Shown here in pieces: positions 1 through 61,552 of a stretch of DNA of 64,000 nucleotides (positions are counted from its first letter, which is position 1; the number at the start of each line of letters is the position of its first letter). Origin of the DNA: Thermomicrobiales bacterium. GTDB taxonomy: Bacteria; Chloroflexota; Chloroflexia; Thermomicrobiales; CFX8. The stretch lies in assembly GCA_039810005.1 (NCBI GenBank), contig JBDHWD010000003.1, forward strand, positions 3,078 through 67,077. Reading direction: 5' to 3'. The translations under genes and the position numbers were made by a program. The notes beneath the pieces were generated by a model. It searched no databases. It was not told where the DNA came from and was given only the letters and a program-made list of their open reading frames with translations.

Positions 1-632
1 GTGGTAATCCACAGACGTGCAACCTGTCCGTGCCAGTCGCGGGGCGTGCTGCGGGTGGTGGCGCGTTCGATGATGTCCCAGACGTATTCGGCGTAGTGAT
101 GCGCGCGACGATCGTCCACTGGTCTGGCCAGGCGTTCAGCGAGCTGTTCGTTGCGCCGAAAGCGCACCAAGTGGCGGACGCTCGGCTCGTTGAGTGCAGC
201 GTCGAGCGCGATGAGATCGACACGCCGCACCTCGTCAGTGATCGCTGCCTCCAGCGTCCGCTCCTGCTGGCATAGTCGCGCATGGAGCGCGTGGGCGCTG
301 CGCAGAGACGCAGCAAGGTCGCGGGTCGCCGGGAGACTGTCGGCGAGACAGGCGACCGCCAGCAGGTCAGGGCCAGAGTCCAGCGAGCCGTTGTGCAAAC
401 GCCGGCGCAAACGCAGCGCCTGGCGACGCCCTTCGCGGTCAAGTGCGTCGTTGGGAATCAGCTCGTCGCCGATTCGTTCGGCAAGGGATGCTGCAACGGA
501 TTCGCTGGCCGATTTGTCGCGATCGTAGGCGCGAAGCGCTGCGGTGTGAGCCGGGTTTGCAGCATGCAGCCAGACGCGCACCGGACAGCCAGCGATGCGC
601 AGAAGACCAGATTCTCCGAGCAAGGCGGACAT
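1..632 (-). CDS. Lantibiotic dehydratase (LanB-type) N-terminal/glutamylation-domain protein, 5' part only; gene continues past the left edge
   Basis: Not in the ORF track because no stop lies in the window. Checked by hand: minus-strand frame with ATG at 632-630 has no stop codon down to base 3 (210 codons). Translation begins MSALLGESGLLRIAGCPVRVWLHAANPAHTAALRAYDRDK and ends ERATTRSTPRDWHGQVARLWIT. Start is 1 nt after the TAG (636-634) of the upstream elimination-domain gene. Family call rests on operon context and general resemblance to LanB N-termini, not a search. Confidence 0.55.
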   Translation of the reverse strand, partial: MSALLGESGLLRIAGCPVRVWLHAANPAHTAALRAYDRDKSASESVAASLAERIGDELIPNDALDREGRRQALRLRRRLHNGSLDSGPDLLAVACLADSLPATRDLAASLRSAHALHARLCQQERTLEAAITDEVRRVDLIALDAALNEPSVRHLVRFRRNEQLAERLARPVDDRRAHHYAEYVWDIIERATTRSTPRDWHGQVARLWIT

Positions 633-633
633 G

Positions 634-1617
634 CTAGATCGTCTCTCTGGTCAGGAGCGCTTCGGTGATCAGCGCCTGGCGAGTCATCGGAAGCGCAGCG
701 CGGTTCCAGTGGAAGATGACGAAGAGCGCTGCCGCAGCACGCGGTCCGATACGCGCTCCGTGAGATTCGAAGTAGTCCTGTTGCCAGCGCAAGGCGATCA
801 GGCGAATGGCGCTGTCGTAGCGCTCGATAACTGCACGCTGCGACTCCGAGAGGTCGGCATAGAGCGACTCGGGTTGACTCCAGGCAGCACGTATTTCGGC
901 GAACAGCTCGGCACTGTCGGGTAAGTTGAGAATATCTGGAGGCAGCATTCGACCGGTACGACGGACACGCTCCCAGATGTCGACGTCTTCCCAGTCCGCA
1001 ATTGACAGCGCAGTCAGGAACGCGCGCAGCATCAGCAGCGACACTGCCCAGCTCGGCGCGGCAGCACGGGTATCCAGCGCGTGGATGTCGAGCCAGGCGA
1101 GCGCGTCGACGCTGAACAGCTCGTGGACATGCTGCATCGAGAGCGCGCCACCGAACAGGTACGTCTCGGGCTCGTAGACCGCGGGAAGCCAGCCGTCGAT
1201 CAGCCCCGAATGCAGCCAGCGGCCCAGTGCCGCGTCGAGCAGTTGAGCCAGAGCGCCGTCGTCAGGCGACGGCGAACGTAAGCGCAGCCGTATGCCCGGC
1301 GGCTTGTGCATGAAGAATGCGAGATCCGCCAGCTCTCGTTCTCGCGCCTGCCTGATGAGGTCGGCGACCGACTGATAGAGCTGCGGAGATGGCGCGTGCC
1401 CGGGCACAGTGATGTTTCGCTGTAGCCATCCAACGGCGCACCCATCGGTTGCGAGCGCACGCTGGCCTGCCGCGATGAAGCGCGCGCAGGCGTCGCGGAT
1501 GTCGTCTGTGACAGCAGGTGACTGATCGATGCAGAGGCTCAGGAAATCCGACAGAGGCATTGCAGCCCCACCGATGACGACTGTCTCGGCGATTGTTTCC
1601 GCGCGACTCGGCGTCAT
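634..1617 (-). CDS. Stand-alone LanB C-terminal (SpaB_C / thiopeptide-type bacteriocin biosynthesis) elimination-domain protein
   Basis: ORF track 634..1689 (-). Start trimmed to ATG 1617-1615, which overlaps the lanC stop as ATGA (plus-strand tcat at 1614-1617). Family-typical motifs: LAFFMHKPPGIRLRLR and AVYEPETYLFGG. Confidence 0.7.
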   Translation of the reverse strand: MTPSRAETIAETVVIGGAAMPLSDFLSLCIDQSPAVTDDIRDACARFIAAGQRALATDGCAVGWLQRNITVPGHAPSPQLYQSVADLIRQARERELADLAFFMHKPPGIRLRLRSPSPDDGALAQLLDAALGRWLHSGLIDGWLPAVYEPETYLFGGALSMQHVHELFSVDALAWLDIHALDTRAAAPSWAVSLLMLRAFLTALSIADWEDVDIWERVRRTGRMLPPDILNLPDSAELFAEIRAAWSQPESLYADLSESQRAVIERYDSAIRLIALRWQQDYFESHGARIGPRAAAALFVIFHWNRAALPMTRQALITEALLTRETI

Positions 1618-2852
1618 CGCAGACCGACGATTCGGAGCCAGTCGCGCGAGCCGCCTACGCGGGTCAGCAGGACGGCGAGGATGCCGCAAGCGCCACTCAG
1701 GAGTGTCTGGTTCTCGACACCGAGACGTCGGATATCGTCGACTCGGGACACGAGTGCTGCTTCGAGCATCCGGGCCAGCTCGTGCGCTGCCGGCAGGTCC
1801 GCGTGGCGCGCGAAGGCGTCGGCAATCGCCAGAATGCCCGCGACGCCGTGGCAGAAAGCGAGCTCGTCACTGATCGGGGCTGCGTCGATGAACCGACGCT
1901 CGTCAAACACGCGACAATACGACGCCATCGCATCGATCGCAAAGCGGGTGATCATGGCATCACCGAGCGTCCGGCCGACTTCATAGAGCACCCACGCCAG
2001 CCCGGGCGTGCCATAGCACCAGGCCTCCCGCCGCGAGAGCGTTGTCGGCGGGGTCCGCCCCTCTCGCGCCGCCGGCGCCCAGGTTCGCAATCCGGATGCA
2101 TCGCTATACGCCTCGCCGATCATCCAGGCTGCGACTCGCTGAAGTGGCGCGATGAGCCGCTCGGTAAGGCTGGGATAGGTCTCTGCTGCTGCGGCCAGAG
2201 CCAGCGCAACGCCGCCCACGCCGTGCGCGAGGCCGGTGTTGATACGCCCGTAGTTCCAGAAGCGCAACCCGTCGTGCTGATAAGTGGTGACCCGCAGGCC
2301 GTCCAGATCCGGCTCGCGAAGAAGCTCGCTGAGACAATCGACCAGCGGTGCGACGTGCTCCAGTGACGCGCCGGCGGCAATCAGCGCGAGCGCGCTGCCG
2401 GATGGGCCGGAGATGAGATCGTAGTCGTGCCAGGCGCGTGGTTCGGTCATCCAGCCCGGCGCGAGGGCAGTGCTGCTGACCGCCTCAATGAGCGGTTCGG
2501 TCAGCTTCGTCAATCCAGGCGCGCGCTGTTGGGACAGCGCAATGCCGGCGAGCAGGCCGCCAAGCCCACCGAATAACGCGCCGGAGTATGCCGCCCGCTC
2601 AGCGTCGTCGAGCCAGCGCGCGATGCCGCGCTCGCCTGCGGCAGTATCGCGGGCGAGCGCGGCGAGGATCGCCAGCCCGGCATCGAATGTCGGCGTGCTG
2701 CCGTCACTCGCTGCCGGCGCTGGCGTCGTGAGCAGGACCTCGGCAGCCAGCGCCTCGATCGCCTCAGGCCAGGCCACCGTCGCCTCGAACGGCGGCATCT
2801 GTATCTGACGACTGGTCGGGGAGGCCGACTGCTGAGGAGCGCTGCTCGTCAT
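1614..2852 (-). CDS. lanC: LanC-type lanthionine cyclase
   Basis: ORF track 1614..2927 (-). Start trimmed to ATG 2852, 25 nt after the precursor stop; the 2927 start would overlap the precursor gene. LanC motifs present: GLAHGVGG, WCYGTPG, AFCHGVAG (Cys/Cys/His zinc ligands). Confidence 0.85.
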   Translation of the reverse strand: MTSSAPQQSASPTSRQIQMPPFEATVAWPEAIEALAAEVLLTTPAPAASDGSTPTFDAGLAILAALARDTAAGERGIARWLDDAERAAYSGALFGGLGGLLAGIALSQQRAPGLTKLTEPLIEAVSSTALAPGWMTEPRAWHDYDLISGPSGSALALIAAGASLEHVAPLVDCLSELLREPDLDGLRVTTYQHDGLRFWNYGRINTGLAHGVGGVALALAAAAETYPSLTERLIAPLQRVAAWMIGEAYSDASGLRTWAPAAREGRTPPTTLSRREAWCYGTPGLAWVLYEVGRTLGDAMITRFAIDAMASYCRVFDERRFIDAAPISDELAFCHGVAGILAIADAFARHADLPAAHELARMLEAALVSRVDDIRRLGVENQTLLSGACGILAVLLTRVGGSRDWLRIVGLR

Positions 2853-2877
2853 TGCGGATACAGTCCGTTTCGCTTTG

Positions 2878-3213
2878 TCACGGAGTCGTATCGTTCGCCG
2901 CGCGCACGAGACGTTCGAAGAGCTCAACGCTCGGCGGTTGCGCGACTTCGGCCTGAATCAACGCCTGGAACGCTCCAGCAGCGTGGTCAACTGCTCCCTG
3001 CCACTGAACACCGCAGGCGTCGGTGCAACCGTTTGTGCACGCATCGGTGCAACCGTAGGTGCAGTCACCGGTTGGATCCGGGCACGTGCCCGTACACCCG
3101 TGGGTACAACCGTGCGTCTGCGGGTCTTCGGCGGTGGGACGCCTCCGCGGAACGGTGCGAACCCGTGCTTCAAGTGCCTTGATGCGAGCTTCGAGCTGAT
3201 TGATGTCGACCAT
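2878..3213 (-). CDS. Lanthipeptide precursor paralog 1 (111 aa) with central Cys/Thr core of eight T-x-x-C units
   Basis: Internal ATG (3213-3211) of track ORF 2878..3657. Sequence MVDINQLEARIKALEARVRTVPRRRPTAEDPQ THGCTHGCTGTCPDPTGDCTYGCTDACTNGCTDAC GVQWQGAVDHAAGAFQALIQAEVAQPPSVELFERLVRAANDTTP. N-terminus is homologous to paralog 2. Lies directly upstream of lanC on the same strand. RBS is weak, so the exact start is uncertain. Confidence 0.7.
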   Translation of the reverse strand: MVDINQLEARIKALEARVRTVPRRRPTAEDPQTHGCTHGCTGTCPDPTGDCTYGCTDACTNGCTDACGVQWQGAVDHAAGAFQALIQAEVAQPPSVELFERLVRAANDTTP

Positions 3214-3289
3214 GTGGCAGACCCATGTCGTTTCCGGCAGCGCACCGGCGGCGAAGGGTTCCGCAACCGATGCCGGCCGCCTCCAGCTC

Positions 3290-3580
3290 CTAGCCGCGTC
3301 CCGCTGCCTTCTCAAAAACCATGAACGCGTCCGCCATGACGCCCTGCAGATCGAGTTGCGGCTTGATTGCCTCCATCTCGACCGGCGCGGCGGCGCACCC
3401 GTCCGTGCAGCCCTTGGTGCAGCCGATCGTGCAGGCGGCGGTGCAGTTATTGGTGCAGCTTCCAGCACTGAACGCAGCAAGATCGCCCGGCCTCGATCCG
3501 CCGGTTGGCACCTGACGCAGCGATGCCTCGAGCTGGGCAATGCGCGCTTCCAGAGCCGAGACTTTGCTCTGATCAACCAT
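3290..3580 (-). CDS. Lanthipeptide precursor paralog 2 (96 aa) with central Cys/Thr core of five T-x-x-C units
   Basis: Internal ATG (3580-3578) of track ORF 3290..3940, preceded by AAGGGAG RBS (minus strand cgaagggagcgttccATG). Sequence MVDQSKVSALEARIAQLEASLRQVPTGGSRPGDLAAFSAGS CTNNCTAACTIGCTKGCTDGC AAAPVEMEAIKPQLDLQGVMADAFMVFEKAAGRG. Confidence 0.75.
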   Translation of the reverse strand: MVDQSKVSALEARIAQLEASLRQVPTGGSRPGDLAAFSAGSCTNNCTAACTIGCTKGCTDGCAAAPVEMEAIKPQLDLQGVMADAFMVFEKAAGRG

Positions 3581-3597
3581 GGAACGCTCCCTTCGAG

Positions 3598-3618
3598 GGT
3601 CGCGTTGTGGACGCGACC
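3598..3618 (-). promoter_or_regulatory. Perfect 8-bp stem-loop in the 5' leader of precursor gene 2
   Basis: GGTCGCGT tgtgg ACGCGACC. On the minus strand it ends 17 nt upstream of the ATG at 3580, immediately before the RBS. No U-tract follows. Confidence 0.3.
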
Positions 3619-4261
3619 GGTGATGATGCACTGGTGCGACGATCGCCAGACACGCAAGCGGGATCGGGTGTCGGCGATTGATGGGTGCGATGAACGTGAT
3701 TGAAAGCGAACAACTGAGACATGCCGGGTAGCGAATCAAGTAGAACGGCACTTCAGGAAGCGAAGGGGGCAGCCCGTCGAAACCGGCAACCGACAGACGC
3801 TCCGCGAGGCCGGGCGCCTGGAGGAATGGGCATCGAAGGATGTCGGGTCGGTCCTGCCGAACATGTGGCTCGGCACTGCCAGGATGACTCCGCTGCCCTG
3901 ACTCTCGCTGGATGACGTTTGCGCCACGCCGGAATCGCATGCTGCGATCCAGCCCATTCGCATGCCATGCCGCAGACTATTCAGGATCCTGTACGCTCCC
4001 GCATACGCACTGCAATGGCCATGCGGCATGTGCCATCCAACAAGAATGCCTCACCCTAACATTGCGATTTGCGGTTGTCAACATCCGTTTACATACGCAT
4101 TGTGAATAGCACTGTGCGTTGTTGCTACCAAGCTTGACTATCTGCGGTACCGCGCGTTGATTGTGCGCACAGCGTTCGGCTCGCGATCCTCGGATCTCGG
4201 TGATAATGCGGCTGGTGCTGCTGATAACCTGCACGTTCGATTGTTCGGTGGGAGGGATGCT

Positions 4262-5203
4262 GTGGTCCTGCGACAGGTGCTGGATGCCTTCGATGTCCTG
4301 GACAGCGCGACAGTCGATGGCCAACGCGTTGCCGAGATGCTGACGAATAGCGGTCTTGGCGACGTTCAGGTCGAGCGCGTGACCGGCCCGAATGGCTACA
4401 CCGACTTTGTCAAGGCGCTGATCCCCGGCCGCGACGGCCGATCGTGCGGCGGGTCCGCGCCGACCCTCGGCATCATCGGTCGACTCGGCGGACTCGGGGC
4501 GCGGCCGGAGCGCATTGGCTTTGTGTCGGATGGCGACGGCGCGCTAGCTGCAATTGCAGCGGCTATGAAGATGGGCCAGATGCAGCGCAATGGCGACACG
4601 CTCCCCGGCGATGTCATCGTCGCAACCCACATCTGCCCAGATGCACCGGTGCGTCCCCACGATCCCGTGCCGTTCATGGCATCGCCGGTTGCCACTGCCC
4701 AGATGAACCAGTTCGAGGTCGACGACCGGATGGAGGCGATCCTCTCAGTCGACACGACCAAGGGCAATCGCATCATCAACACGCGTGGTTTCGCGATCTC
4801 CCCCACCGTCAAGCAGGGGTACATCCTGCGCGTCAGCGAAGATCTGCTCGACATCATGCAGTGGACGACCGGACGACTGCCAGCGGTCTTCGCGCTCACA
4901 ACGCAGGACATTACGCCCTATGGCAATGGCGTCTTCCACCTGAACAGCATTCTCCAGCCAGCGACAGCGACCCCCGCGCCGGTGGTCGGCGTCGCGATCA
5001 CAACCGAAGTTCCGGTGCCAGGCTCAGGCACCGGCGCGACGCACCTGACCGATGTTGAGCAGGTGGCGCGGTTCTGCATTGAGGTCGCCAAAGCGTTCGG
5101 CGCAGGACAATGCAGCTTCCACGACGCAGATGAATTCGAGCGCATCGTCACGCTCTACGGTGAGATGACGCACTTGCAACAGCACAGCGAAGCCGGGAGC
5201 TGA
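4262..5203 (+). CDS. DUF1177-family protein
   Basis: ORF track 4157..5203. Start moved to GTG 4262, preceded by GGGAGGGA (4249-4256). Call based on overall resemblance to DUF1177 proteins (about 310 aa, N-terminus VVLRQVLDAFDVLDS...), from memory of the family. Confidence 0.6.
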   Translation: MVLRQVLDAFDVLDSATVDGQRVAEMLTNSGLGDVQVERVTGPNGYTDFVKALIPGRDGRSCGGSAPTLGIIGRLGGLGARPERIGFVSDGDGALAAIAAAMKMGQMQRNGDTLPGDVIVATHICPDAPVRPHDPVPFMASPVATAQMNQFEVDDRMEAILSVDTTKGNRIINTRGFAISPTVKQGYILRVSEDLLDIMQWTTGRLPAVFALTTQDITPYGNGVFHLNSILQPATATPAPVVGVAITTEVPVPGSGTGATHLTDVEQVARFCIEVAKAFGAGQCSFHDADEFERIVTLYGEMTHLQQHSEAGS

Positions 5204-5243
5204 TGCGTTCGGCAACTACACGGTGACGATGAGGAGGCTCACG

Positions 5244-7175
5244 ATGAGCGACACGGCGAGTGACAGGGCGATGAGCGTCGATGACTATCTGAATCTGCTG
5301 CAGGTCAGCGACGCGAACCTGCGGCCGCAAGGCGATCAGATCGCCTACATCGTCGCCGAAAGCACAACGCCGGCGCGCGTCCGTAAGGCGGCGTCACGTA
5401 TCTGGCTCGTTGATACCGACGACGGGACGGCAAGACCACTCACCGCAGACGGGATGCGCGCACACTCGCCGCGCTGGTCGCCGAACGGCGAGCATCTGGC
5501 GTTCCTCGGCTCGCGCGACAACGCCGGTCCGGATCAGGTTCATATCCTCAGCCACGCCATGGGCGAGGCTCGCGCCCTGACCTGCGGCCCGGCGTCCGTC
5601 GCAGACGTGGCCTGGCTGCCATCGAGCGATGGCCTGATCGTCGCGATCTCTGACCCCGCGCCCGAAGACGAAGAGGCAGATCACGAAGCCGGACGCGACT
5701 GGACCGTCTATGAGGACGGACCGCGGTTGACGCGGCTCTGGCGTCTCGACACTGCAACCGGCGACCGCTCACCGATCGAGCATGGCGATCTCCACATCTG
5801 GGAATTCGCCATCGCGCCGGACAGCCGGTCCGTCGTCGCGATCGTATCCGACACCTCGTTCAACTGGGACTGGTATCGCGGGCGGCTGGTGCGGATTGAT
5901 CTCGCCAGTGGCGTCGTTTCGGCATTCGCCTCGGATACCGGGCAGGCGACACGACCGACCTGGTCGCCGGATAGCCGCCGGGTTGCGTCGATTGTCTCTG
6001 CGTTCAGCGATCAGGGGATGACCGGCGGCGATGTCCAGATCAGTAGTATCGATGGCAAGGTAGCGGTCATTACCGCGGGACATCCACGCTCATACCTGCA
6101 GGTACTCTGGAACGAGCCGGACCAGCTACTCTGCGCGGCTATTGAGAACGGTGAGCTGACCATCGGACGACTCGCGCTGTCCGGCGAATACAGTGAAATC
6201 TGGCGCGGCAGGAACGGGATCAATCGCTATGGCAGCACGGTAGTATCGGCGGCAACAGCCGAGCAGCGCACGCGACTCGCAACAGTCCTCAGCACTCCCG
6301 AGCAGCCGGCCGAGGTACACATCGCCGACCTCATGGGCGACTCATTGCAATGGTCGATGCTGACCACGACGAACCCGGAGATCGCCGGCCGCTCGCTCGT
6401 GTCCCCAGAGACGATCCACTGGACATCGTCCGACGGCATGACGATCCAGGGCCTGCTTCTACGCCCTGATGGCGCAGGCGACGGGCCGTTGCCGACAATC
6501 GTGCTCGTCCATGGCGGGCCGACGGCATTATGGGGTTACGACTTCATGGGCACGCGCTCGATGGGCTGGGGGCAGATGCTGGCGGCGCACGGTTACGCGA
6601 TCTTCCTTCCCAATCCACGTGGCAGCATGGGCTGGGGCCGCGCCTTCGCCGAGGCAAACATCGGCGACATGGGCGGTGGGGATCTGCATGATGTCCTCTC
6701 CGGAGTCGACTGGCTGGTCGCGCATGGCATTGCCGACCCGAACCGCCTCGGCATCGGTGGCTGGAGCTATGGCGGCTACATCACAGCCTGGGCTGTGACA
6801 CAGACGGGACGCTTCAAGGCAGCCGTTGCCGGCGCGTCGATCACCAACTGGATCTCGTTCCACGGCTGCAGCACAATCCAGGATTTCGACACCACGTTCT
6901 ATCGGGACGATCCGTTCGGTTGGGACGGTCGCTACGGCCAGTTCTCGCCAATGGCGCACGTGCGCCACGTCTCGACGCCGACGCTGTTTCTGCATGGTGA
7001 GCAGGATCCGATCTGCCCGGTCGGTCAGGCTCACGAGATGTGGCGCGCGCTCCGCGAGTGCGGGGTCGAGACGCAACTTGTCGTCTACCCCCGCGAAGGC
7101 CACGGACCGATCGAGCGGGAACACAGTCGCGATGTACTGGAGCGCGCGGTCGGCTGGTTCGTGGAGCGGGTCTGA
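5244..7175 (+). CDS. S9-family serine peptidase (prolyl oligopeptidase / acylaminoacyl-peptidase type) with N-terminal beta-propeller
   Basis: ORF track 5223..7175. ATG 5244 follows GAGGAGG. Nucleophile motif GGWSYGGY; Asp and His contexts HGEQDPICP and REGHGP. TolB-like propeller repeats (SPRWSPNGEHLAF, RPTWSPDSRRVA). Confidence 0.85.
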   Translation: MSDTASDRAMSVDDYLNLLQVSDANLRPQGDQIAYIVAESTTPARVRKAASRIWLVDTDDGTARPLTADGMRAHSPRWSPNGEHLAFLGSRDNAGPDQVHILSHAMGEARALTCGPASVADVAWLPSSDGLIVAISDPAPEDEEADHEAGRDWTVYEDGPRLTRLWRLDTATGDRSPIEHGDLHIWEFAIAPDSRSVVAIVSDTSFNWDWYRGRLVRIDLASGVVSAFASDTGQATRPTWSPDSRRVASIVSAFSDQGMTGGDVQISSIDGKVAVITAGHPRSYLQVLWNEPDQLLCAAIENGELTIGRLALSGEYSEIWRGRNGINRYGSTVVSAATAEQRTRLATVLSTPEQPAEVHIADLMGDSLQWSMLTTTNPEIAGRSLVSPETIHWTSSDGMTIQGLLLRPDGAGDGPLPTIVLVHGGPTALWGYDFMGTRSMGWGQMLAAHGYAIFLPNPRGSMGWGRAFAEANIGDMGGGDLHDVLSGVDWLVAHGIADPNRLGIGGWSYGGYITAWAVTQTGRFKAAVAGASITNWISFHGCSTIQDFDTTFYRDDPFGWDGRYGQFSPMAHVRHVSTPTLFLHGEQDPICPVGQAHEMWRALRECGVETQLVVYPREGHGPIEREHSRDVLERAVGWFVERV

Positions 7176-7718
7176 CGCTGATCAATCCCAGACGCCTGCT
7201 CCGGGCGCGTTCACCACATCGTCAATTTATCGCGACAGACCGGCATTGACAGCGCAATGTCGCGGTCTCACAATGCGAATTGTGCGCAACGTTGCGTCGC
7301 ACTGCTTCAGGAACGAGCTTCCCAATGAACGGAGGTAATTGCGTCAATCCCGGAATCGCAAACTCCGGCGCTCACAGGTGAGCCCGACTGCGCGATCAAA
7401 TTGTCGAACACCCATCAAGTGTCCAGCACAGACCAGCATTCACGATGGAGGCACTTGGATGACTACCCCCTTGCATGACCATCGCCGCGACTGTCGGCGA
7501 CTCGTCAGGTCAGGACAGCTGATCCCTGGTGTGCGTGAGCTGATCGCTCTTCCAGGCGGCTAGACGTGACCCTTCATCCAATAGGTTCACCCGCCCCAAC
7601 ACAGAAGTGCGTCATACGCAGTCGGCGCTCGATAAGCGCGGCTTATCCTCGCAGGCTCGGCCATCATTCATGCACGCGCCGCACACATTTGTGAGAACCA
7701 CAGAGAAGCGAGAGCATC

Positions 7719-8243
7719 ATGGCCAACATCACCGGTATTCTCTGCCAAGTCATTACCGGCACCGGCAATGGCGCGGGGACGGACGGCGACGTCTATCTCG
7801 GCATCTGCGGACGCGAGTTTCATCTCGATTCATCGGCCGATGATTTCGAGCGCGGCTCCCTGCGCGAGTACATCATGGGGCGCGCGCCGCTTGAGCCGAA
7901 CCTGCCGTCGCCGCAGATCCGGGTGAACAACAGCGTGCTCAACGACCCGCGAACCGACTACATCATGAAGACGGAAACGCTGCCGAGCATGCCAGTCTAC
8001 ATTCGCTTTGAGCCAAACGGTGACAACGATCACTGGCAGCTGCATTTCGCTGCGGTACTCGTCTACACCGGGCGAGGCGACTTCAACACGGCCTACATCC
8101 CGCCCCAGGACTTCGACAATCTCTGGCTCGGGTATCGCTCAGGGAAGATTCTCTACTTGCAGGAGCTCCCGGACGTAACCGGTGACCACGCGCTGGAGCG
8201 CGGGCGGGAGAAGGCAAAGACGCTCGGTATCAACGCCGAATAG
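7719..8243 (+). CDS. Stand-alone PLAT/LH2-domain protein (174 aa)
   Basis: N-terminal pattern ILCQVITGTGNGAGTDGDVYLGICGREFHLDSSADDFERGSLREY and later DHWQLHFAAVLV match the PLAT beta-sandwich signature (TG..aGTD..V.l.l.G ... FerG ... W.l..v.v). RBS gagag precedes the ATG. Confidence 0.55.
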   Translation: MANITGILCQVITGTGNGAGTDGDVYLGICGREFHLDSSADDFERGSLREYIMGRAPLEPNLPSPQIRVNNSVLNDPRTDYIMKTETLPSMPVYIRFEPNGDNDHWQLHFAAVLVYTGRGDFNTAYIPPQDFDNLWLGYRSGKILYLQELPDVTGDHALERGREKAKTLGINAE

Positions 8244-8258
8244 TGCTACCGCGTGATT

Positions 8259-8293
8259 GTGATAGACGCTGCCGAGCGTGCAGCGTCTATCAC
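8259..8293. terminator. Perfect 13-bp hairpin between convergent genes (bidirectional terminator candidate)
   Basis: GTGATAGACGCTG ccgagcgtg CAGCGTCTATCAC between the PLAT stop (8243) and the hydrolase stop (8307). No clear U-tract. Confidence 0.5.
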
Positions 8294-8306
8294 GACCAGG
8301 CGTTGC

Positions 8307-9155
8307 TCAGGGAATACGACCGAAGCCAGCGAGATGCCCGCCCCAGTATGAGTCGCTGAGTGGTGTCAGTTGCACTGGCTCACCCCAGTCAACTGAGTGC
8401 AGGAAGTAGCCGTTGCCGGCGTAGATACCGGAGTGTGAGATTCCGGCACCCCAGGTCCCGCCAAAGAAGACGAGATCACCCGGTTGAAGCTGCGACTGAT
8501 CGATCCGCTGCGTCGCGTTCCACTGCGCGCCGGAGCCGTGCGGAAGCTCGACGCCGGCCATGTGGAACGACCAGTAGACCAGACCCGAGCAGTCGAACCC
8601 GCCGTCGGCGATGTCATCGCCCCCGGCGAGGTACGGCATGCCAATAGCCTCCAGGCCATACGACAGGGCTAGCGCCTGCGTGAGCGGGGTAGCGTTATCG
8701 TAGCGACCATCATGGAGCGACTGCTGGTAGCGCGCGAGCGTACCGAAAGCGGACGAATAGCGATCGTGACGCTCGGCCGGATAGCGGCCCGTGTCATCGA
8801 TCATGCCAAGATACGAAGCGACCGCAAGGTCCCAGGTGCCCCAGCGTGCGTAGGCTGCCGTCAGGTAGCGCGACGCGGCGGTGAGGTTCGTATCCGGTTG
8901 TTGCAGATCTCCGCCGACCTGGACGAGGCCGGCCATTTCTGGAGTGATCTGAGCCAATCCCTGTTGGCCGCTGGAGCCGTTCGGAATGGCAACGTTGCCG
9001 TCCGATTCGACAGCGATCAGCGCTCGCATCACGCCGGCTGGTACGCCGGATTCCTGTGACACACGCGCGATCAGTGCGATCCACGGCGCTGTTGACTGAG
9101 TCAGCGAGCGCGTGGGTTCCTTAGCCTGGACTTCCGCTGCGCCGCCCGGAATCAC
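8307..9155 (-). CDS. Bifunctional cell-wall hydrolase: lytic transglycosylase (SLT) domain + NlpC/P60 endopeptidase domain
   Basis: SLT motif AVESDGNVAIPNGSSGQQGLAQITPEMA. NlpC/P60 motif DCSGLVYWSFHMAGVELPHGSGAQW ... GDLVFF ... SHSGIYAGNGYFLHS. Track start is GTG 9155, but the true start is probably further upstream (see finding); possible extension to 9227. Confidence 0.8.
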   Translation of the reverse strand: MIPGGAAEVQAKEPTRSLTQSTAPWIALIARVSQESGVPAGVMRALIAVESDGNVAIPNGSSGQQGLAQITPEMAGLVQVGGDLQQPDTNLTAASRYLTAAYARWGTWDLAVASYLGMIDDTGRYPAERHDRYSSAFGTLARYQQSLHDGRYDNATPLTQALALSYGLEAIGMPYLAGGDDIADGGFDCSGLVYWSFHMAGVELPHGSGAQWNATQRIDQSQLQPGDLVFFGGTWGAGISHSGIYAGNGYFLHSVDWGEPVQLTPLSDSYWGGHLAGFGRIP

Positions 9156-9352
9156 GTCCGGTGCGATCGGCGAGACGAGCAGTGTCCCGCCCAGCAGCAG
9201 AATGCCAAGCGCTTTCCCCCGCTTGATACGGCATCCCCTCCACTGTTCCGATGCCCCTCCCGGCTGACGACGACGCGTCAGCGCTGTGGCATGTGCGGCG
9301 GCACGAACCCCCCAGTCCGTGACTTGACCTCGAAAGGCTCCGCCGGTCGGGG

Positions 9353-9397
9353 ATTGTACGGACCCCTCAGGCGACCCGCAATGTGAATCGCATCACA
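9353..9397 (-). promoter_or_regulatory. CRP/FNR-type palindrome TGTGA-N6-TCACA abutting a minus-strand promoter (TTGCGG-17-TACAAT)
   Basis: Plus strand 9382-9397 = TGTGAatcgcaTCACA (perfect). On the minus strand it is followed directly by TTGCGG (9381-9376), a 17-nt spacer, and TACAAT (9358-9353). Confidence 0.45.
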
Positions 9398-9604
9398 AAG
9401 GAGTCACATCATGTAGATTCAGGCGTACGGACGCACGCCAATTTGAGCAGATGCGGAAGGCCATCTGCCGTGCGGTCACTATGTACGTACGCAGCCTTAC
9501 GCGCATTCAGCGTATGATTGGCAGGTGAATATGCGGCAGAATACAGGCAGCGGCCCGCCCGACAGCGGCGATTGGGCGTAACGGAAGAGCGAGGGACGAC
9601 GCAG

Positions 9605-10756
9605 ATGGAATCAGCGTTGCTTCAGCAGCGGGTCGAGCGCATGCGGGCCGGTATGCGCGATTCCGGTATGGACGCTGCATTTCTCCCGTACGGATCGGTC
9701 TTCCAGTATGTCACCGGTTTGGAGACGCCGATCACCTGGGAGGTCGGTCGGCAGTACGGCGACTGGATCACCGGCCTCGTTTTGCGCCTCGACGCTGAAC
9801 CGGTGCTCATCCTGCGGCCCAGTTGGGTCGGCGAATACGTCGAGGGCTTGCCGTTCGATGTGCTTGTCATGCCTGATGGCGCTGACCCGGACGAGTTTCT
9901 CGCCGAGTCGGTGCGCTCACTCGGTCTTGAAGGGCTGAGCATCGGCGTCCCGAAGATGCTCTGGAGCCAGGCATTGCTCAGCCTCCAGCGCGCGCTGCCG
10001 GCAGCGCAGTTCCTGGCAATGTCAGACGGCTGGTTCGACCGGGTATGCGCCATCAAGGACGCGGGCGAGATCGCCATCCTTGAGCGGGCCGCGCAGATCA
10101 CGGACGCTGCCTTCGCCGATGTCATCGCCCGGATCACACCCGGAATGCTCGACCGCGATCTCGTGATTGAGGTCGACTACCAGCTCAAGCGCCACGGCGG
10201 AGATGGCTTCTCATTCATGCCGGTCGTCGTGGTCGATGGCCACGGCTCACGGTACGCGCGTGCCTGGATTGACCGCGATGAGCCCAAGCCGCTGCTCCAC
10301 GGGACGTCGCTGGCGTTTGACTTGGGCGTGCGCTATCGCGGCTATTGCTCCGACTTCGGCCGCTCGGCATTCATCGGCGACCCGGACCCGACGGCACTAG
10401 CCGCCTGGAATTCGATCACCCGCGTTATTCAGGCTGCAATGAACGTCATGGGCGATGGACAGATCACGCCGAGCGGTGTACACGATTTCGTCGTTGACGA
10501 AGTCACGAAAGACGGCTTCCGCGATCAGTTTTCGTGGTACGCGCTGGGGCACTCGATCGGACTCGATGTGCATGAGGATCCGTGGATGCTGCCGCAATTC
10601 AATGAGCCGATCCGGGCTGGGATGTGCTTCGCGCTGGAACCGAAGATCGGCATGCCCGGCCAGTTCTATGTGCGCTGCGAAGATGTTGTGCTTATTGAAT
10701 CCGAGCGCGCCAGACCATTGACACGGTTCCCCTACGATCCGATTATCATCGCATGA
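9605..10756 (+). CDS. M24-family metallopeptidase (Xaa-Pro aminopeptidase / prolidase type)
   Basis: ORF track 9518..10756. ATG 9605 follows gagggac. Creatinase/prolidase-type N-domain plus pita-bread motifs (FDLGVRYRGYCSDFGR, LGHSIGLDVHEDP, FALEPK, EDVVL). Confidence 0.85.
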   Translation: MESALLQQRVERMRAGMRDSGMDAAFLPYGSVFQYVTGLETPITWEVGRQYGDWITGLVLRLDAEPVLILRPSWVGEYVEGLPFDVLVMPDGADPDEFLAESVRSLGLEGLSIGVPKMLWSQALLSLQRALPAAQFLAMSDGWFDRVCAIKDAGEIAILERAAQITDAAFADVIARITPGMLDRDLVIEVDYQLKRHGGDGFSFMPVVVVDGHGSRYARAWIDRDEPKPLLHGTSLAFDLGVRYRGYCSDFGRSAFIGDPDPTALAAWNSITRVIQAAMNVMGDGQITPSGVHDFVVDEVTKDGFRDQFSWYALGHSIGLDVHEDPWMLPQFNEPIRAGMCFALEPKIGMPGQFYVRCEDVVLIESERARPLTRFPYDPIIIA

Positions 10757-10995
10757 CAGAGAAGCCACGGCGGGATCGCTACAGATTCCCACAAACGCGC
10801 GACTCCCGCATCGCGATGGTCGCGACGCTGGCCGCCTTCCTGATCGTCATGGCGATCTTCATCATCATTATCTTCCGTCAGGGTCGGCTGGAGTTCCCGA
10901 CGCCAACGCCCGAAACATCGCGAGATGTCATCGTGCAGGCCGCGCTGCTCTGGCAGGCGCCGCGCGAGGCGGTATCGACTTCCATCAACGCCTGA
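10753..10995 (+). CDS. Small single-pass membrane protein (80 aa), function unknown
   Basis: ATG overlaps the M24 stop as ATGA (10753-10756). One clear TM segment: IAMVATLAAFLIVMAIFIIIIF. Confidence 0.45.
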   Translation: MTEKPRRDRYRFPQTRDSRIAMVATLAAFLIVMAIFIIIIFRQGRLEFPTPTPETSRDVIVQAALLWQAPREAVSTSINA

Positions 10996-11029
10996 CTGCA
11001 ACCGTCGACCGGCTCGTGCGTCCACAGGA

Positions 11030-11057
11030 AACGCGCCCCCTGTGCGGGGGGCGCGTT
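11030..11057. terminator. 11-bp GC hairpin between convergent genes
   Basis: AACGCGCCCCC tgtgcg GGGGGCGCGTT between 10995 (+ stop) and 11073 (- stop). Confidence 0.5.
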
Positions 11058-11072
11058 CTGCATGCGTGCTGT

Positions 11073-13028
11073 CTATTCGCCGCGTTCAATCCCGAGGTGA
11101 CGGTCATACCAGTCAACGACGCGCTGGAGCAGGTCGAGCTGATGCTTCCGTTCACCGATCGTGTGCGGCTCGCGCGGGTAGGTGACGAGCTGCGTCTCAA
11201 CGCCGAGCGCCTTGAGCCCCTCGTACAGCTCGTAGCCCTGCGACGGTGGGACGCGCGCGTCGGCCGCTCCGTAGAGGATCAGCGTCGGCGTCTTTGCGTT
11301 GCCGATAACGCGAATCGGCGACAACCGCCAGTGGACTTCAACATCGTCGACGACTGAGCCGAGGTAGGCATCGAAGACGCCGCGCACATCGGCGGTTCCC
11401 TGGAAGCTGACCCAGTTGGCGATGCCCGCGCCAGAGACGGCGGCCTTGAAGCGATCGCTGTGGGTGATCGTCCAGTTCGTCAGGAAGCCGCCGCCACTCC
11501 AGCCGCCGACGACGAGGCGCTCCGGATCGGCGATGCCTTGCTCGATCATGGAATCAACGCCGGTAATCAGGTCGTCCCAGTCCGGTTCTCCGTAGCAGCC
11601 GACGATAGCGCAGAGGAAGTCCGAGCCCTGGCCGGACGAGCCGCGTGGGTTCGGCATCAGCACGGCGTAGCCGCGCTGCGCCAGGAACTGGCCCCAGTCG
11701 TGCCAGTTCGCATACAGCTGGCTCGTCCACGCACCGCATGGGCCGCCGTGGATGTGCAGCAACAGCGGGTAGCGCTGGCCCTCTTCATAGCCGACCGGCA
11801 GGATCAGCAAACCTTCGATCTCCATGCCGTCGGTCGACTTCCACGAGACTTCGCGCATCTCACCGAAGTCGTAGTCTCTGATCCACGGGTTGAGATCGGT
11901 GACCTTCTGCGGCGTGCCGCCCACGTCAGCGACATAGAGGTCGGCGAGTGAGTCCATGTTGGCCCGCGCAAAGGCGACACGCGATCCATCGCGCGACACG
12001 CTTAGCGGATTCCCGCTTCGCCCTGCCGATCCCGCCGGCAAGGTGAAGGCGGCTTCGGCCGACTGCTCCTCGATATCAACGAAGCGGATCGCGTGCTGCT
12101 GGCCCTCTTCGATCATTGCCAGCATCCTGTCGCCCTCGGGCAACCAGGCGATGCTGGTGAACGAGCCCTTGTAGTCGGGCAGGACGACAGTCGAATCGCC
12201 GCCGCCAGCCGGGATGGTGCGCAGCGAGAACAGCGACGGCATCTCACGCTCGCAGGCGATGAAGCCCAGCGTCGAGCCATCCGGGCTGTAGAGCGGTCGG
12301 TCGCCGAGGCCGGGGAAGTTGCCGAGGTTGTTCATCGTCCCGTCAAGATCGAACGTCGCCAGATCGGGCGAGAACAGGAAATCAGCCTTCGGACCGGGTG
12401 CGACGATCGCGGCGAGCCCCTTCGAGTCCGGTGCCCAGGAGAACGCGCGACCCGAAAGCGAACCGACATGCAGCCCCTCTGGCGAGATGCGTCGCGGTTC
12501 GGGGAACCCGGTTGCGGCACGCGGGTCTTCGGGCACATCAATCACCCAGAGCGTCGCACGCTTGAGGTCGGCGTCAACGACCAGCCAGTCCTCGCGCTCC
12601 TCCTTGCGCCGCTTCTCATCTGGGGACTCGCCGTCCATCGAGGTAAACGCGATCTGCTTACCGTCCGGCGACCAGTCGAGGTCGGTGACTGGCCCGTCGT
12701 GGTTGGTCAGGCGCACTGCCTCGCCGCCGTTAACGGCGATGACGTAGGCCTGTGGTGAGCCGGACTTCAGGCGGTCCGAGAGAAACGCGACCGACGTACC
12801 GTCCGGCGACCAGCGCGGCGACCCATCGGCGGCCTCGGAAGTCGTCAACCGTCGCGGCTTGCCGCCATCGGAATCGACGATCCAGATGGCGCTCGTCCTG
12901 GCCTCACCTTCGACCGACGCAGCGGTCGTGACGTACGCGACCTGCTTGCCATCCGGTGAGATCTGGATGTCAGCTAGCATCGTTGCAGAGACTGCTACCT
13001 CAAATGGCAGCATACGAATATCGGACAC
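11073..13028 (-). CDS. S9-family serine peptidase (second copy; prolyl oligopeptidase / acylaminoacyl-peptidase type)
   Basis: ORF track 11073..13070. GTG 13028 follows AAAGGAGA. Nucleophile GGWSGGGF; C-terminal YGAADARVP and REPHTI. Propeller repeats (SPRWSPDGTSVAF, DWSPDGKQIAF). Confidence 0.85.
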   Translation of the reverse strand: MSDIRMLPFEVAVSATMLADIQISPDGKQVAYVTTAASVEGEARTSAIWIVDSDGGKPRRLTTSEAADGSPRWSPDGTSVAFLSDRLKSGSPQAYVIAVNGGEAVRLTNHDGPVTDLDWSPDGKQIAFTSMDGESPDEKRRKEEREDWLVVDADLKRATLWVIDVPEDPRAATGFPEPRRISPEGLHVGSLSGRAFSWAPDSKGLAAIVAPGPKADFLFSPDLATFDLDGTMNNLGNFPGLGDRPLYSPDGSTLGFIACEREMPSLFSLRTIPAGGGDSTVVLPDYKGSFTSIAWLPEGDRMLAMIEEGQQHAIRFVDIEEQSAEAAFTLPAGSAGRSGNPLSVSRDGSRVAFARANMDSLADLYVADVGGTPQKVTDLNPWIRDYDFGEMREVSWKSTDGMEIEGLLILPVGYEEGQRYPLLLHIHGGPCGAWTSQLYANWHDWGQFLAQRGYAVLMPNPRGSSGQGSDFLCAIVGCYGEPDWDDLITGVDSMIEQGIADPERLVVGGWSGGGFLTNWTITHSDRFKAAVSGAGIANWVSFQGTADVRGVFDAYLGSVVDDVEVHWRLSPIRVIGNAKTPTLILYGAADARVPPSQGYELYEGLKALGVETQLVTYPREPHTIGERKHQLDLLQRVVDWYDRHLGIERGE

Positions 13029-13038
13029 GGATTCTCCT

Positions 13039-14250
13039 TTATTCCTTGTTCGCCATTGGCGGCTGAACACCTACCTGACGCTCCGGGAGCTTTGCCCAGG
13101 AGTGCATTGGTCGCTCGGAAGTGCGCGGCAGTTGCACACCATCGACGAGTGTCGCGGTCGCACTGAGCAGCTTGCCGCCCTCCCGACGAGCCATGTCAGT
13201 ATCGAAGAAGCTGTAGTCGCCGTCATCGAGCCGGAATACTGCCACGTCGGCAGGAGCGCCGACCGCAAGCGTGCCCATATCCGGACGGCGCATTGCCCTG
13301 GCCGCGTTGGTCGTCGCACGGGCGATCACGTCCGGCAGGCTCATGCCCAGATTGAGGAACTTCGACAACGTCGTCGGCAGATCAAACATGGGCCCCTGCC
13401 GGGCAGTCTGGTGAATGTCGCTGGAAATGACGTCCGGCAAGACGCCCTGATCCAGCATCGCTTCGGTGACCTCGTAGGAGAATGAGCCGGTGCCGTGGCC
13501 AATGTCGAGCACCAACCCCTGCCGTTGCAGCTCGGCGATCTCCGGCAGAATCTTGCCGTTGTCGTCCATGATGCGCATGTCGCCGCCGCTGAAGCAGTGG
13601 GTCAGGATGTCGCCGGGCCGCAGCAACGTCGCGACCTCCTGGATGGTCGGTGGCCCCGAGCCGATGTGCACCATCAACGGTAGCCCGACCTTGTCGGCCA
13701 GCTCGCGAGCGCGCTCGACGGCCAGCATACCAACGCCGCGCGTCGTCCGTCCGTCGATGCGCGCCTTGATGCCGAGGATCAGGTCGCGGTTCTCGTCAAC
13801 AATCGAGGCAGCCAGATCGACGTTCAGATAGTCCGGGTTCGACAGTTCCCACGACGGCGCGACGAGACCAATCGCCGACAGGTTCAGCAGCGCGAAGATA
13901 CGCGCCTTACTCGGCTCAACAACATAGCGCCGGAAGCCGGGGAATGTGTACGAGCCGGCGCTGCCGACATCGAGCCAGGTTGTGACGCCACTGACGGCTG
14001 CGACCGGATCCGCTTCGATCCCCCAGTAGGTCACGCCCCAGTAAATGTGCGTGTGCAGATCGATAAGCCCCGGTGTGACGATCCGGTCGGTCGCGTCGAT
14101 AACCTCCTTCGCGCCGGACGGATCGATACCCGCTGCGACCTCAGCGATCTTGCCGTCTGTGACCGCGACGTCCAGCATGCCATCTACGCCGGACGCGGGG
14201 TCGATGACGCGGCCGCCCCGGATGAGCGTGTCGATTCCTGCTGTTGGCAT
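13039..14250 (-). CDS. Amidohydrolase-superfamily metallohydrolase (dihydroorotase / isoaspartyl-dipeptidase-like)
   Basis: ORF track 13039..14325. ATG 14250 follows GGGAGGGGAG. Motifs IDLHTHIYWG, MVHIGSGPP, GDILTHCF, DIGHG, SSDIH are typical of the TIM-barrel amidohydrolase fold. Confidence 0.8.
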   Translation of the reverse strand: MPTAGIDTLIRGGRVIDPASGVDGMLDVAVTDGKIAEVAAGIDPSGAKEVIDATDRIVTPGLIDLHTHIYWGVTYWGIEADPVAAVSGVTTWLDVGSAGSYTFPGFRRYVVEPSKARIFALLNLSAIGLVAPSWELSNPDYLNVDLAASIVDENRDLILGIKARIDGRTTRGVGMLAVERARELADKVGLPLMVHIGSGPPTIQEVATLLRPGDILTHCFSGGDMRIMDDNGKILPEIAELQRQGLVLDIGHGTGSFSYEVTEAMLDQGVLPDVISSDIHQTARQGPMFDLPTTLSKFLNLGMSLPDVIARATTNAARAMRRPDMGTLAVGAPADVAVFRLDDGDYSFFDTDMARREGGKLLSATATLVDGVQLPRTSERPMHSWAKLPERQVGVQPPMANKE

Positions 14251-60423: not shown

Positions 60424-60457
60424 CGCCGAACGTGGCGTGCTACACTTTCTTCAGACG

Positions 60458-60553
60458 GATGCCAGGGGTGCGCGAGATCGCGCTGAGAGTGCGGGGCGAA
60501 GCCCGCTGACCCTCCGAACCTGATCTGGGTCATACCAGCGAAGGGACGGCATC
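60458..60553 (+). promoter_or_regulatory. TPP (THI-box) riboswitch aptamer
   Basis: GATGCC aGGGGTGCgcgagatcgcgCTGAGAgtgcggggcgaagcccgcTGACCCtccgAACCTGATCTGGgtcATACCAGCGaAGGGAc GGCATC. The conserved CTGAGA, ACCTGATCTGG.TAATACCAGCG.AGGGA core and the P1 pairing (60458-63 with 60548-53) are all present. Confidence 0.9.
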
Positions 60554-60573
60554 GACAACCAGCCTCACCAAGG

Positions 60574-60609
60574 CGCCGTCGACCCATACGGGTCGCGGCG
60601 TTTGTGTTT
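60574..60609 (+). terminator. Riboswitch expression-platform terminator
   Basis: CGCCGTCGACCC atac GGGTCGCGGCG followed by TTTGTGTTT, located between the aptamer and thiD. Confidence 0.7.
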
Positions 60610-60706
60610 CGGGACAGGTGCAGGCGGGGGTCTCCACGGAGGGCGCACCGACCTGGCATATACGAGACCGGCAGTAGCCGGCTTTCGCCCGCCGAGGGAG
60701 GCGTCC

Positions 60707-61552
60707 ATGTCCAATCTCCTGCCGGCCATCAGCCGGCGCATTCCTGCCGCAGTGACAATCGCTGGCTCCGACTCCGGCGCTGGAGCTGGTATTCAGGCCG
60801 ATCTCAAGACGTTCGCCGCACACGGTGTCTACGGCACATCGGTAATTACTGCTGTGACCGCACAAAACACTCGTGGCGTTCAGTCGTTCGCGGCGCTCGA
60901 CCCCGGACTGGTTGCGGCCCAGATTGAAGCCGTCATTGACGACATCAAGCCTGCCGCCGCCAAGACCGGCATGCTGGCGAATGCCGGCATTGTCCGTGTC
61001 ATCGTCGAGGCGCTGGAACATTATCCGGACCTTCCGGTTGTGATCGATCCGGTCGCAAACGCCAAGAGCGGAGACGCGCTGATCGACGCCGAGGCGCTCG
61101 CCGCCCTGCGCAGCGACCTGCTGCCACGCGCCCGCCTGATCACGCCGAACCTGCCCGAGGCGGCGGCGCTAACCGGCCTCCGCGCCGAGACGACCGATGA
61201 CATGCCGCGGGTCGGCGAGGCGCTGCTGGCGCTCGGTGTCGGGGCGGTCGTCGTCAAGGGCGGCCACCTGATCGATCGCGCCGACGACCTGTTCATGGAC
61301 GGCAGCCGCAGCGAGTGGCTCAGCGCCGCGCGTGTCATCACACGCTGCACACACGGGACCGGCTGCACGTTCAGCGCCGCGATCACGGCCAACCTGGCGC
61401 TCGGCCACGAGCTCTTTGAGGCAGTGGTCGCGGCCAAGCGCTATCTCACTGAGGCGTTGATCGCCGGCTACGAAGTCGGCGATGGGCATTCGCCGGTCGA
61501 TCACTTTTACGCCGGAACACGCTTCCCTACAAATGAAAGGGTCATCGCATGA
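60707..61552 (+). CDS. thiD: Hydroxymethylpyrimidine / phosphomethylpyrimidine kinase
   Basis: ORF track 60602..61552. ATG 60707 follows [48 protein letters not shown] ... [10 protein letters not shown]. Confidence 0.9.

Follow-up and report, generated by a model that had tools for sequence, protein, structure and literature searches.

A probable minimal SapT-type operon for class I lanthipeptides, with paired tandem-TxxC precursors, in an uncultured Thermomicrobiales bacterium

What kind of peptide is made by a five-gene locus at the edge of a Thermomicrobiales contig, and by which chemistry? The locus lies in a stretch of 64,000 nucleotides (nt) of contig JBDHWD010000003.1 (assembly GCA_039810005.1, positions 3,078 to 67,077 of the forward strand), called the window throughout. 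An earlier note, made from the sequence alone, had assigned it to class I lanthipeptide biosynthesis, with a split LanB and the gene order precursors, lanC, eliminase, glutamylase. Domain matches, folds and separate open reading frames (ORFs) bear this out. The locus has the testable defining features of a class I lanthipeptide cluster and of the split-LanB subtype, and it is probably a minimal operon of the SapT type from an uncultured member of the Chloroflexota. The dehydratase type is already known, and the mechanism is unsurprising. Novelty appears to lie in the pair of precursors, whose family seems undescribed. The most unusual features of the locus, all absent from the earlier note, are the tandem TxxC cores, the pairing of precursors A1 and A2, their C-terminal followers, and the syn-type signature of the lyase.

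The five genes are consecutive on the minus strand, and all of the ORFs are present at the coordinates first proposed for them. Positions are those of the window; protein lengths are in amino acids (aa).

3290 to 3580, minus strand: gene for precursor A1, 96 aa (ORF call and sequence)
3395 to 3472, minus strand: A1 core, SxxxC(TxxC)5 (family alignment and donor/acceptor counts; ring pattern predicted)
2878 to 3213, minus strand: gene for precursor A2, 111 aa (ORF call and sequence)
3013 to 3117, minus strand: A2 core, (TxxC)3-PDP-(TxxC)5 (sequence; ring pattern predicted)
1614 to 2852, minus strand: lanC, lanthionine cyclase, 412 aa (PF05147 match)
634 to 1617, minus strand: stand-alone glutamyl lyase (LanB elimination domain), SptBb type, 327 aa (PF14028, TIGR03891, modelled fold)
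1 to 632, minus strand: first 210 codons of the gene for a free-standing glutamyl-tRNA-dependent glutamyl transferase (LanB N-terminal domain), 815 aa at full length

The genes are tightly packed. The lanC stop and the lyase start overlap as cgATGAcg, and the lyase TAG is followed by the transferase ATG after a spacer of 1 nt, a C (atcTAGcATGtcc); both junctions had been noticed before and read the same here. Such spacing suggests translational coupling, by which the products of all three enzyme genes would be made in a fixed ratio. The precursor genes are not peculiar to this assembly. A1 is found on 117 public contigs and A2 on 107, where the lengths of 96 and 111 aa were called independently. 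A promoter and terminator scan of the operon found nothing above shuffled expectation. An attenuator between A1 and A2 was also considered, and none is claimed because the hairpin there is no stronger than those of shuffled sequences (z = -1.1).

The cyclase is the clearest of the three enzymes. The 412-aa product matches LANC_like (PF05147) with 80 bits against a cut-off of 23.2. Its acid (His210 in GLAHGVGG) and its Zn ligands (Cys279 in WCYGTPG, Cys334 and His335 in FCHG) are all present, as expected of the lanC gene that had been claimed at 2852 to 1614. Sequence matches in the PDB are the LanC-like protein 8byk, whose motifs align, and NisC. The protein is 40% identical to the LanC of a SapT-like Streptomyces cluster (L026; related loci are given by L numbers).

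The lyase is a free-standing elimination domain, as proposed for the gene at 1617 to 634. Its 327-aa product matches the LanB C-terminal model Lant_dehydr_C (PF14028) with 64 bits (cut-off 24.4) and TIGR03891 with 96 bits (cut-off 48). A sequence-only search of the PDB returned no match for it. The AlphaFold2 (AF2) model has a mean predicted local distance difference test score (pLDDT) of 91.7, and among PDB folds it comes closest to the elimination domains of MadB, MibB, and NisB, with expectation values (E) of ~1e-8. The C-terminal half is left unaligned to NisB and MibB by the profile, as the authors of PMC9486935 also report. Residues 1 to 63 form an N-terminal extension of ~60 residues before the Pfam domain, modelled confidently as a beta-hairpin and two helices. 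This extension is common to the metagenomic relatives, is shorter or absent in Nonomuraea and many Streptomyces homologues, and could be a docking or peptide-binding element.

Related folds have other activities, and a different reading of the locus follows from them. The Lant_dehydr_C homologue might be a [4+2] aza-cyclase or a non-lyase paralogue of the thiopeptide or pyritide kind, or the peptides might be targets of radical S-adenosylmethionine (radical-SAM) enzymes or metal-binding targets, so that no lanthipeptide is made. TbtD and PbtD, both pyridine synthases, are indeed matched by the lyase model (E 1e-4 to 1e-5), but the true LanB elimination domains are better fold matches and the aza-cyclases rank second. 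The NCBIfam name of the lyase match is 'thiopeptide-type bacteriocin biosynthesis protein', yet the protein keeps the glutamate-binding Arg pair and the conserved Glu, is the sole Lant_dehydr_C protein available as a partner of the transferase, and shares its operon with an intact LanC. Both A1 and A2 resemble TIGR04117, a Cys-Xaa-Xaa-Xaa repeat radical-SAM target, but weakly, at 17.7 and 18.4 bits where the cut-off is 50. Genes for YcaO, an azoline dehydrogenase, a second Lant_dehydr_C, or a radical-SAM enzyme are absent within ~10 kb on either side, and neither YcaO nor a second Lant_dehydr_C was found in the larger window ORFs sampled further along. A thiopeptide or pyritide cluster was rejected because it would bring a YcaO cyclodehydratase and a second Lant_dehydr_C-like pyridine synthase, and a radical-SAM target because the scores are below the cut-off and no such gene is near. 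An origin outside lanthipeptide biosynthesis is therefore highly improbable.

The transferase gene runs off the window, and the 210-aa fragment alone matches no Pfam or NCBIfam model. The left flank was read from six public contigs that carry the exact 327-aa lyase and are 98.8 to 99.4% identical to the window over ~11.6 kb. On these contigs the edge gene encodes 815 aa, and the window fragment is identical to its N-terminus (P0033) at 209 of 210 positions. The earlier note had taken the gene starting at 632 for a LanB N-terminal type, a view that depended on a long dehydratase gene continuing to the left. The 815-aa ORF is that gene. The complete protein passes Lant_dehydr_N (PF04738) with 34.9 bits against a cut-off of 28 (residues 510 to 737), and it is 30 to 38% identical to Streptomyces 'lantibiotic dehydratases', the one of L026 included. 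An AF2 model built with 20 homologues (pLDDT 86.9) has TbtB (6ec7) as its top PDB match, with E 1.5e-26 and a template modelling (TM) score of 0.63. Further fold matches are GodF and the N-terminal domains of MibB, NisB, and MadB (E 1e-26 to 1e-16 overall). By its modelled fold the protein is a stand-alone LanB glutamylation enzyme, an identification that is firm only through this comparison.

Lyases that eliminate syn are defined by a Lys that replaces the Tyr of the anti type and by a hydrophobic residue in place of NisB Arg826 (PMC9486935). The glutamate-binding Arg pair and a conserved Glu are kept in syn and anti lyases alike (SapT papers). The key residues of the window lyase are K105, R110 and R112, E151, L154, and FHWNR at 302 to 306. 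None of K105, R110, R112, and E151 varies among 30 aligned homologues. In the profile-to-PDB alignment, K105 aligns to the Tyr of MibB and MadB, with the NisB Tyr in an adjacent insert, R110 and R112 correspond to NisB R784 and R786, and L154 to NisB R826. The stretch YEPETYL154FGG aligns to YDQEVERYGG of NisB and YDPEYERYGG of MibB, and SptBb itself reads HKPPGLRVRF and YEPETYLFG (PMC9486935). Both published discriminators, Lys105 and Leu154, are thus in the syn state, which predicts (E)-dehydrobutyrine (Dhb) and D-allo-L-methyllanthionine (MeLan). The window lyase is probably syn-eliminating.

The same operon could carry out an ordinary anti-elimination, with DL- or LL-MeLan formed from (Z)-Dhb. 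An invariant histidine, His303 of FHWNR, speaks for this. It is conserved throughout the lyase family and in SptBb, and FHWNR resembles the HNNR context of the NisB catalytic His in the supplementary alignment of PMC9486935. Should His303 be the base, the Lys/Leu signature would be all that carries the syn assignment. Moreover, syn activity is demonstrated for SptBb and CoiSA(ED) only, and both are at most ~40% identical to the window lyase. Nevertheless, both discriminators are in the syn state. The window lyase is also 42% identical over its full length to P0127, which is in turn near-identical to the printed SptBb fragments (PMC9486935 supplement). Where the authors tested the residue constellation, in SapT and the coi product, it is reported to have predicted allo-MeLan. 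Anti-elimination by the window lyase is accordingly considered unlikely, and syn-elimination is the preferred reading.

Which substrates do these enzymes act on? Precursor A1 begins with a leader that contains LEARIAQLE, followed by a core at residues 37 to 62 (FSAGSCTNNCTAACTIGCTKGCTDGC) and a C-terminal follower of 34 aa that ends in FMVFEKAAGRG. The exact protein is deposited at NCBI as the hypothetical protein MCC6935555.1 from a Thermomicrobiales metagenome-assembled genome (MAG). Its core holds six Cys and six predicted Ser/Thr donors. C42, T43, C46, T47, C50, T51, C54, T55, C58, and T59 are invariant in the family alignment. The predicted rings are one lanthionine (Lan), S38-C42, and five MeLan, T43-C46, T47-C50, T51-C54, T55-C58, and T59-C62.

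Precursor A2 has a leader with LEARIKALEARVR, a core at residues 33 to 67 (THGCTHGCTGTCPDPTGDCTYGCTDACTNGCTDAC), and a 44-aa follower that holds ELFERL. Each of its eight core Cys has a Thr at position -3. The predicted product carries eight four-residue MeLan rings, with a Pro-Asp-Pro break after the third. Members of the family share an N-terminal helical leader with the motif LExRIxELExxxR. The consensus core of the A1 type is FSxGSCTN(N/E)CTAACTIGCTxGCTGxC, and that of the A2 type is THGCTxGCTGxCPDPTGxCTYGCTxGCTNGCTxxC.

The ring register was counted over 117 family precursors with 736 Cys. Thr stands at -3 of 601 of these Cys and Ser at -3 of 36, and a further 93 have Ser/Thr only at -4. 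In all, 99% of the family Cys have a Ser/Thr donor at -3 or -4. In the core subset used for a shuffle comparison (734 Cys), Thr at -3 was observed 599 times against 142 expected from shuffled cores. A1-like members nearly always have six Cys, and 26 of the 27 A2-like members have exactly eight, with Thr at -3 for 208 of 215 Cys. The predicted rings enclose mostly N, G, H, D, Y, and A. Because donors match acceptors one-to-one at fixed spacing, a chain of abutting four-residue rings is predicted.

C-terminal followers are uncommon in lanthipeptides. Many members of this family, both window peptides included, have a variable linker and a follower past the core. An aromatic-x-x-Leu/Val motif often stands at the C-terminal end, in 36 of 73 A1-like and 5 of 27 A2-like members.

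The family is nearly confined to metagenomes. A search with A1 of 5.8 billion proteins gave 32 relatives, none with a functional annotation. A precursor profile run against 1.84 billion cluster representatives (E <= 0.001) gave 106 matches, a handful of which are coiled-coil false positives. Neither A1 nor A2 matches any Pfam or NCBIfam model above threshold. A literature search of incomplete coverage, and so weak as evidence, brought up no description of a tandem-TxxC precursor family; only the SapT and Coi papers surfaced. Among 185,579 GTDB species genomes, the profile found one true further locus, L007, in a Chloroflexota MAG. The precursor scan of metagenomes returned mostly very short contigs.

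Several matches from these scans were rejected. A match in a Gemmatimonadales contig is a false positive with a reading frame interrupted by a stop. A match in a Methanobacteriota MAG (L008) is a Cys/Thr-rich stretch inside a large protein, and four metagenome matches, L021 to L024, were set aside on a partial-match profile like that of L008, without separate inspection. In L008 (JAEWQJ010000059, ~9990 to 10130), the large protein has a long C-T/S-x-x repeat run (CTSGCTTSCTASCTIGCTSGCTSSCTASCVAVCTSACISSCT) that follows an apparent Ig-like domain. Through its likeness to the core motif, the run gave rise to false positives in the pattern scans.

Taken together, the enzymes and precursors point to the following pathway. 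A1 and A2 would each be recognised through the N-terminal helical leader by the motif LExRIxxLE. The 815-aa transferase would place glutamate from Glu-tRNA(Glu), as an ester, onto the Thr residues and one Ser of the cores. The separate 327-aa lyase would then remove the glutamate to give Dhb and dehydroalanine (Dha), and, carrying the SptBb signature (Lys for Tyr, Leu for NisB Arg826), would be expected to do so by syn-elimination to (E)-Dhb. The Zn-dependent LanC would join each Cys to the dehydro residue three positions upstream, or four for the first A1 ring. In the predicted products, rings of four residues abut directly; A1 would have six of them and A2 eight, and the MeLan would be D-allo-L. 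Proteases from outside the conserved module would cut off the leader and probably the C-terminal follower.

Besides the invariant His303, some observations count against this assignment. The Lant_dehydr_N match of the transferase is weak and covers only residues 510 to 737, and no PDB relative of the transferase was found by sequence or with a sequence profile. The suggested coupling depends on spacing, and the lanC-lyase junction is a short gap in L007 and L011, with no overlap. The flanks of the window, L007, L010, L011, and L028 share no transporter, protease, or immunity gene next to the module, which leaves export and maturation unexplained and does not imply an antibiotic role. No product has been observed, and the ring pattern and stereochemistry remain predictions.

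Do the two peptides belong together? Each of the nine independent loci that offer sufficient sequence (the window, L007, L010, L011, L014, L015-18, L019, L020, and L028/29) has an A1-type gene next to an A2-type gene, in the order A1-A2 or A2-A1. A more distant relative with another operon order, L027, has a single A1-like precursor. The A1/A2 pair is, as judged from these loci, a conserved, derived, and retained trait, which suggests that A1 and A2 work together.

A stronger form of this idea keeps the enzymology described above and makes A1 and A2 an obligate two-peptide system that acts jointly. Adjacency in all nine loci is in its favor, though the order flips, and co-occurrence is no proof of synergy. 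Each precursor type keeps its own strongly conserved core, and distant relatives with the other operon order have a single A1-like precursor, so the pair is derived and retained; yet no activity is known for any member of the family. Known two-component lantibiotics, made of alpha and beta peptides, are class II and depend on LanM enzymes, and there is no LanM at the window locus. Multi-precursor class I clusters are common: at least two precursors occur in 38% of class I clusters (PMC7268733). The viridisins, a tested multi-precursor example, show no synergy. An obligate pair is therefore only a tentative proposal, less probable than peptides that do not need one another.

A bolder proposal is that A1 and A2 form an undescribed class I scaffold. 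They would be rigid 'bead-string' rods, made up almost wholly of six and eight abutting four-residue D-allo-L-MeLan rings, that act only together, and they would mature from a tripartite precursor with the conserved C-terminal aromatic-x-x-Leu follower as a second recognition or export element. Class I would then have its first obligate two-peptide system, which would also be the first such system outside Firmicutes and Actinobacteria. In its entirety this is a doubtful picture. The reading preferred here is the SapT-type operon that modifies two precursors.

Is the order of the enzyme genes unusual? The earlier note had stressed that the eliminase precedes the glutamylase. This holds at the window, but it is no specialty of the locus, since all relatives examined share the order, including the SapT-like Streptomyces cluster. 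The lyase gene is directly upstream of the transferase gene in every relative inspected, and this order is thus a hallmark of the clade rather than a peculiarity of the window locus. Split glutamylation and elimination polypeptides are also found in L007, L011, L025, L026, L027, and L028. The lyase-transferase junction reads TGA-C-ATG in L025 and TGA-C-GTG in L026. It is a 1-nt gap in L028, a 4-nt overlap in L027, and a short overlap in both L007 and L011.

What differs between relatives is the position of the other genes. The order is precursors, lanC, lyase, transferase in the window, L007, L011, and L028, and lyase, transferase, precursor(s), lanC in L025, L026, and L027. Having the precursors and lanC upstream of the two dehydratase genes is, by this comparison of gene orders, particular to the sub-family of the window.

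Some relatives have features of their own. L025, on a 606-kb contig, encodes three different short precursors at 9754 to 10487, with a common leader (LELSDVDALISELEVQFQ) and dissimilar small cores. Two ORFs of 249 and 625 aa were called for its transferase, perhaps through a frameshift or a further split. In L028 (6050 to 7830), the genes directly after that of the transferase encode an AAA_21 ATPase and a DUF4276 protein. This pair is often tied to defence-type modules.

How far does the cluster extend? The remainder of the cluster, including the rest of the large gene and any transporter, protease, or immunity genes, had been placed beyond the left edge. The rest of the large gene is there, but none of the other genes is conserved at that place, and downstream content differs between loci. 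On the near-identical contigs, the region 3' of the transferase holds a polysaccharide-deacetylase-family gene and a 53-aa ORF without a Cys-rich core. It also holds a small RNA-polymerase alpha C-terminal-domain-like protein, an F420 ligase, and two ABC-2 transporter pairs on the opposite strand. The 5' side in the window holds DUF1177, an S9 peptidase, a 174-aa protein, an NlpC/P60-SLT protein, an M24 peptidase, and a second S9 peptidase. No window flanking gene recurs beside the module in L007, L010, L011, or L028. The neighboring peptidases (DUF1177, two S9, M24) and the left ABC2 transporters were considered as conserved parts of the cluster and rejected, as they are common to no related locus. 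Judged from these flanks, the conserved unit is five genes only. The DUF1177 protein and the S9 peptidase are possible leader and follower peptidases and, as such, candidates outside the conserved module.

Other features of the window are listed here. The region from 4157 to 13070 is unusually peptidase-rich; these enzymes could act on peptides but are not conserved at related loci.

4157 to 7175, plus strand: DUF1177 protein and S9 (prolyl-oligopeptidase family) peptidase, divergent from the operon (Pfam); the S9 peptidase spans 5223 to 7175
8307 to 9155, minus strand: NlpC/P60-SLT protein
9518 to 10756: M24 peptidase
11073 to 13070, minus strand: S9 peptidase
19611 to 24047, minus strand: 1478-aa protein with a PD-(D/E)XK nuclease and a superfamily-1 helicase (AAA_11/AAA_12), apparently unrelated to the operon
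60454 to 60564, plus strand: thiamine pyrophosphate (TPP) riboswitch RF00059, 71.8 bits (gathering score 54.3)
60602 to 61552 and 61549 to 62355: ORFs just downstream of the riboswitch, presumably thiamine-related

How does the locus relate to known systems? The closest named relatives of all three window enzymes are actinobacterial. The nearest described system is the SapT (spt) cluster of Streptomyces lavenduligriseus, formed by SptA, SptBa, and SptBb together with SptC and placed in group 10 of the glutamyl lyase (GL) similarity network (PMC9486935). Like the window, it has the same three enzymes as separate proteins. SptBb shares the HKPPGxRxR, YEPETYLFG, and FHWNR motifs with the window lyase. 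In the SapT-like cluster L026, from Streptomyces coeruleoprunus, LanC and the transferase are 35 to 40% identical to the window enzymes, and a 1-nt spacer separates the lyase gene from the transferase gene directly downstream, as in the window. Leaders of the SapT type, (D/E)xLIxELE, have the same acidic helical character as LExRIxxLE. The spt cluster is also minimal and lacks a protease, which matches the minimal module of the window.

The locus also differs from the SapT system. L026 has the order lyase, transferase, A, lanC, whereas the precursors and lanC are upstream in the window. The SapT type has one precursor and the window two dissimilar ones, which, unlike SapT, have C-terminal followers. 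SapT-like cores are hydrophobic, with S-G-[VILF]-[VIGF]-C ... CTIVIC (PMC9011353), and in L026 the lyase and transferase genes stand beside a precursor with the hydrophobic core CSQLCTVIVCGTVVVC. The window cores are instead polar, Gly-rich TxxC repeats, in contrast to the surfactant-like SapT core. Membership in the SapT-like product family was rejected, as the cores are not hydrophobic and show no similarity to that of L026. They are thus no homologues of SapT at the product level, and a morphogenetic surfactant role is not implied. Finally, SapT homologues are reported in Streptomyces only, whereas the hosts of the window family are Chloroflexota or other non-actinobacterial phyla.

Stand-alone glutamylation polypeptides are also known from thiomuracin (TbtB/TbtC) and goadsporin (GodF), where the gene order is transferase then lyase. 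The pathways of TbtB and GodF have YcaO cyclodehydratases and a pyridine synthase but no LanC, and the window is the reverse.

Nisin (NisB, NisC) relies on the same chemistry, in which a Glu-tRNA-dependent dehydration is followed by Zn-dependent cyclisation. Ring B of nisin (Dhb-x-x-Cys) has the size of the rings predicted for the window, and the LanC catalytic residues are conserved. In contrast to nisin, the window dehydratase is split in two genes, its lyase lacks the Tyr and Arg826 of anti-eliminating enzymes, and there is no FNLD-type leader and no LanT, LanP, or LanFEG. The cores contain only contiguous small rings, again as predicted.

If the prediction is true, these would be the most ring-dense lanthipeptides built of a single repeating unit, with every ring of the rare D-allo-L type. 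As clean natural substrates they would also serve to study how a LanC and a syn-lyase work many identical sites in register. The understanding of lanthipeptide biosynthesis is unchanged by the locus, which is a useful lead for genome mining and no new kind of system.

The pinensin cluster of Chitinophaga pinensis was, as cited in PMC7268733 and PMC9011353, the first from which a lanthipeptide was shown to arise by a split LanB. Compared by the description given there, it is class I and, like the window, has separate glutamylation and elimination proteins and a LanC. A survey assigns the smaller split-LanB groups to anti-type lyases (PMC9486935), whereas the window lyase has the syn signature. 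The enzymes of the window add a Chloroflexota branch to the recently recognised group of syn-eliminating split LanB enzymes, so far described from actinobacteria.

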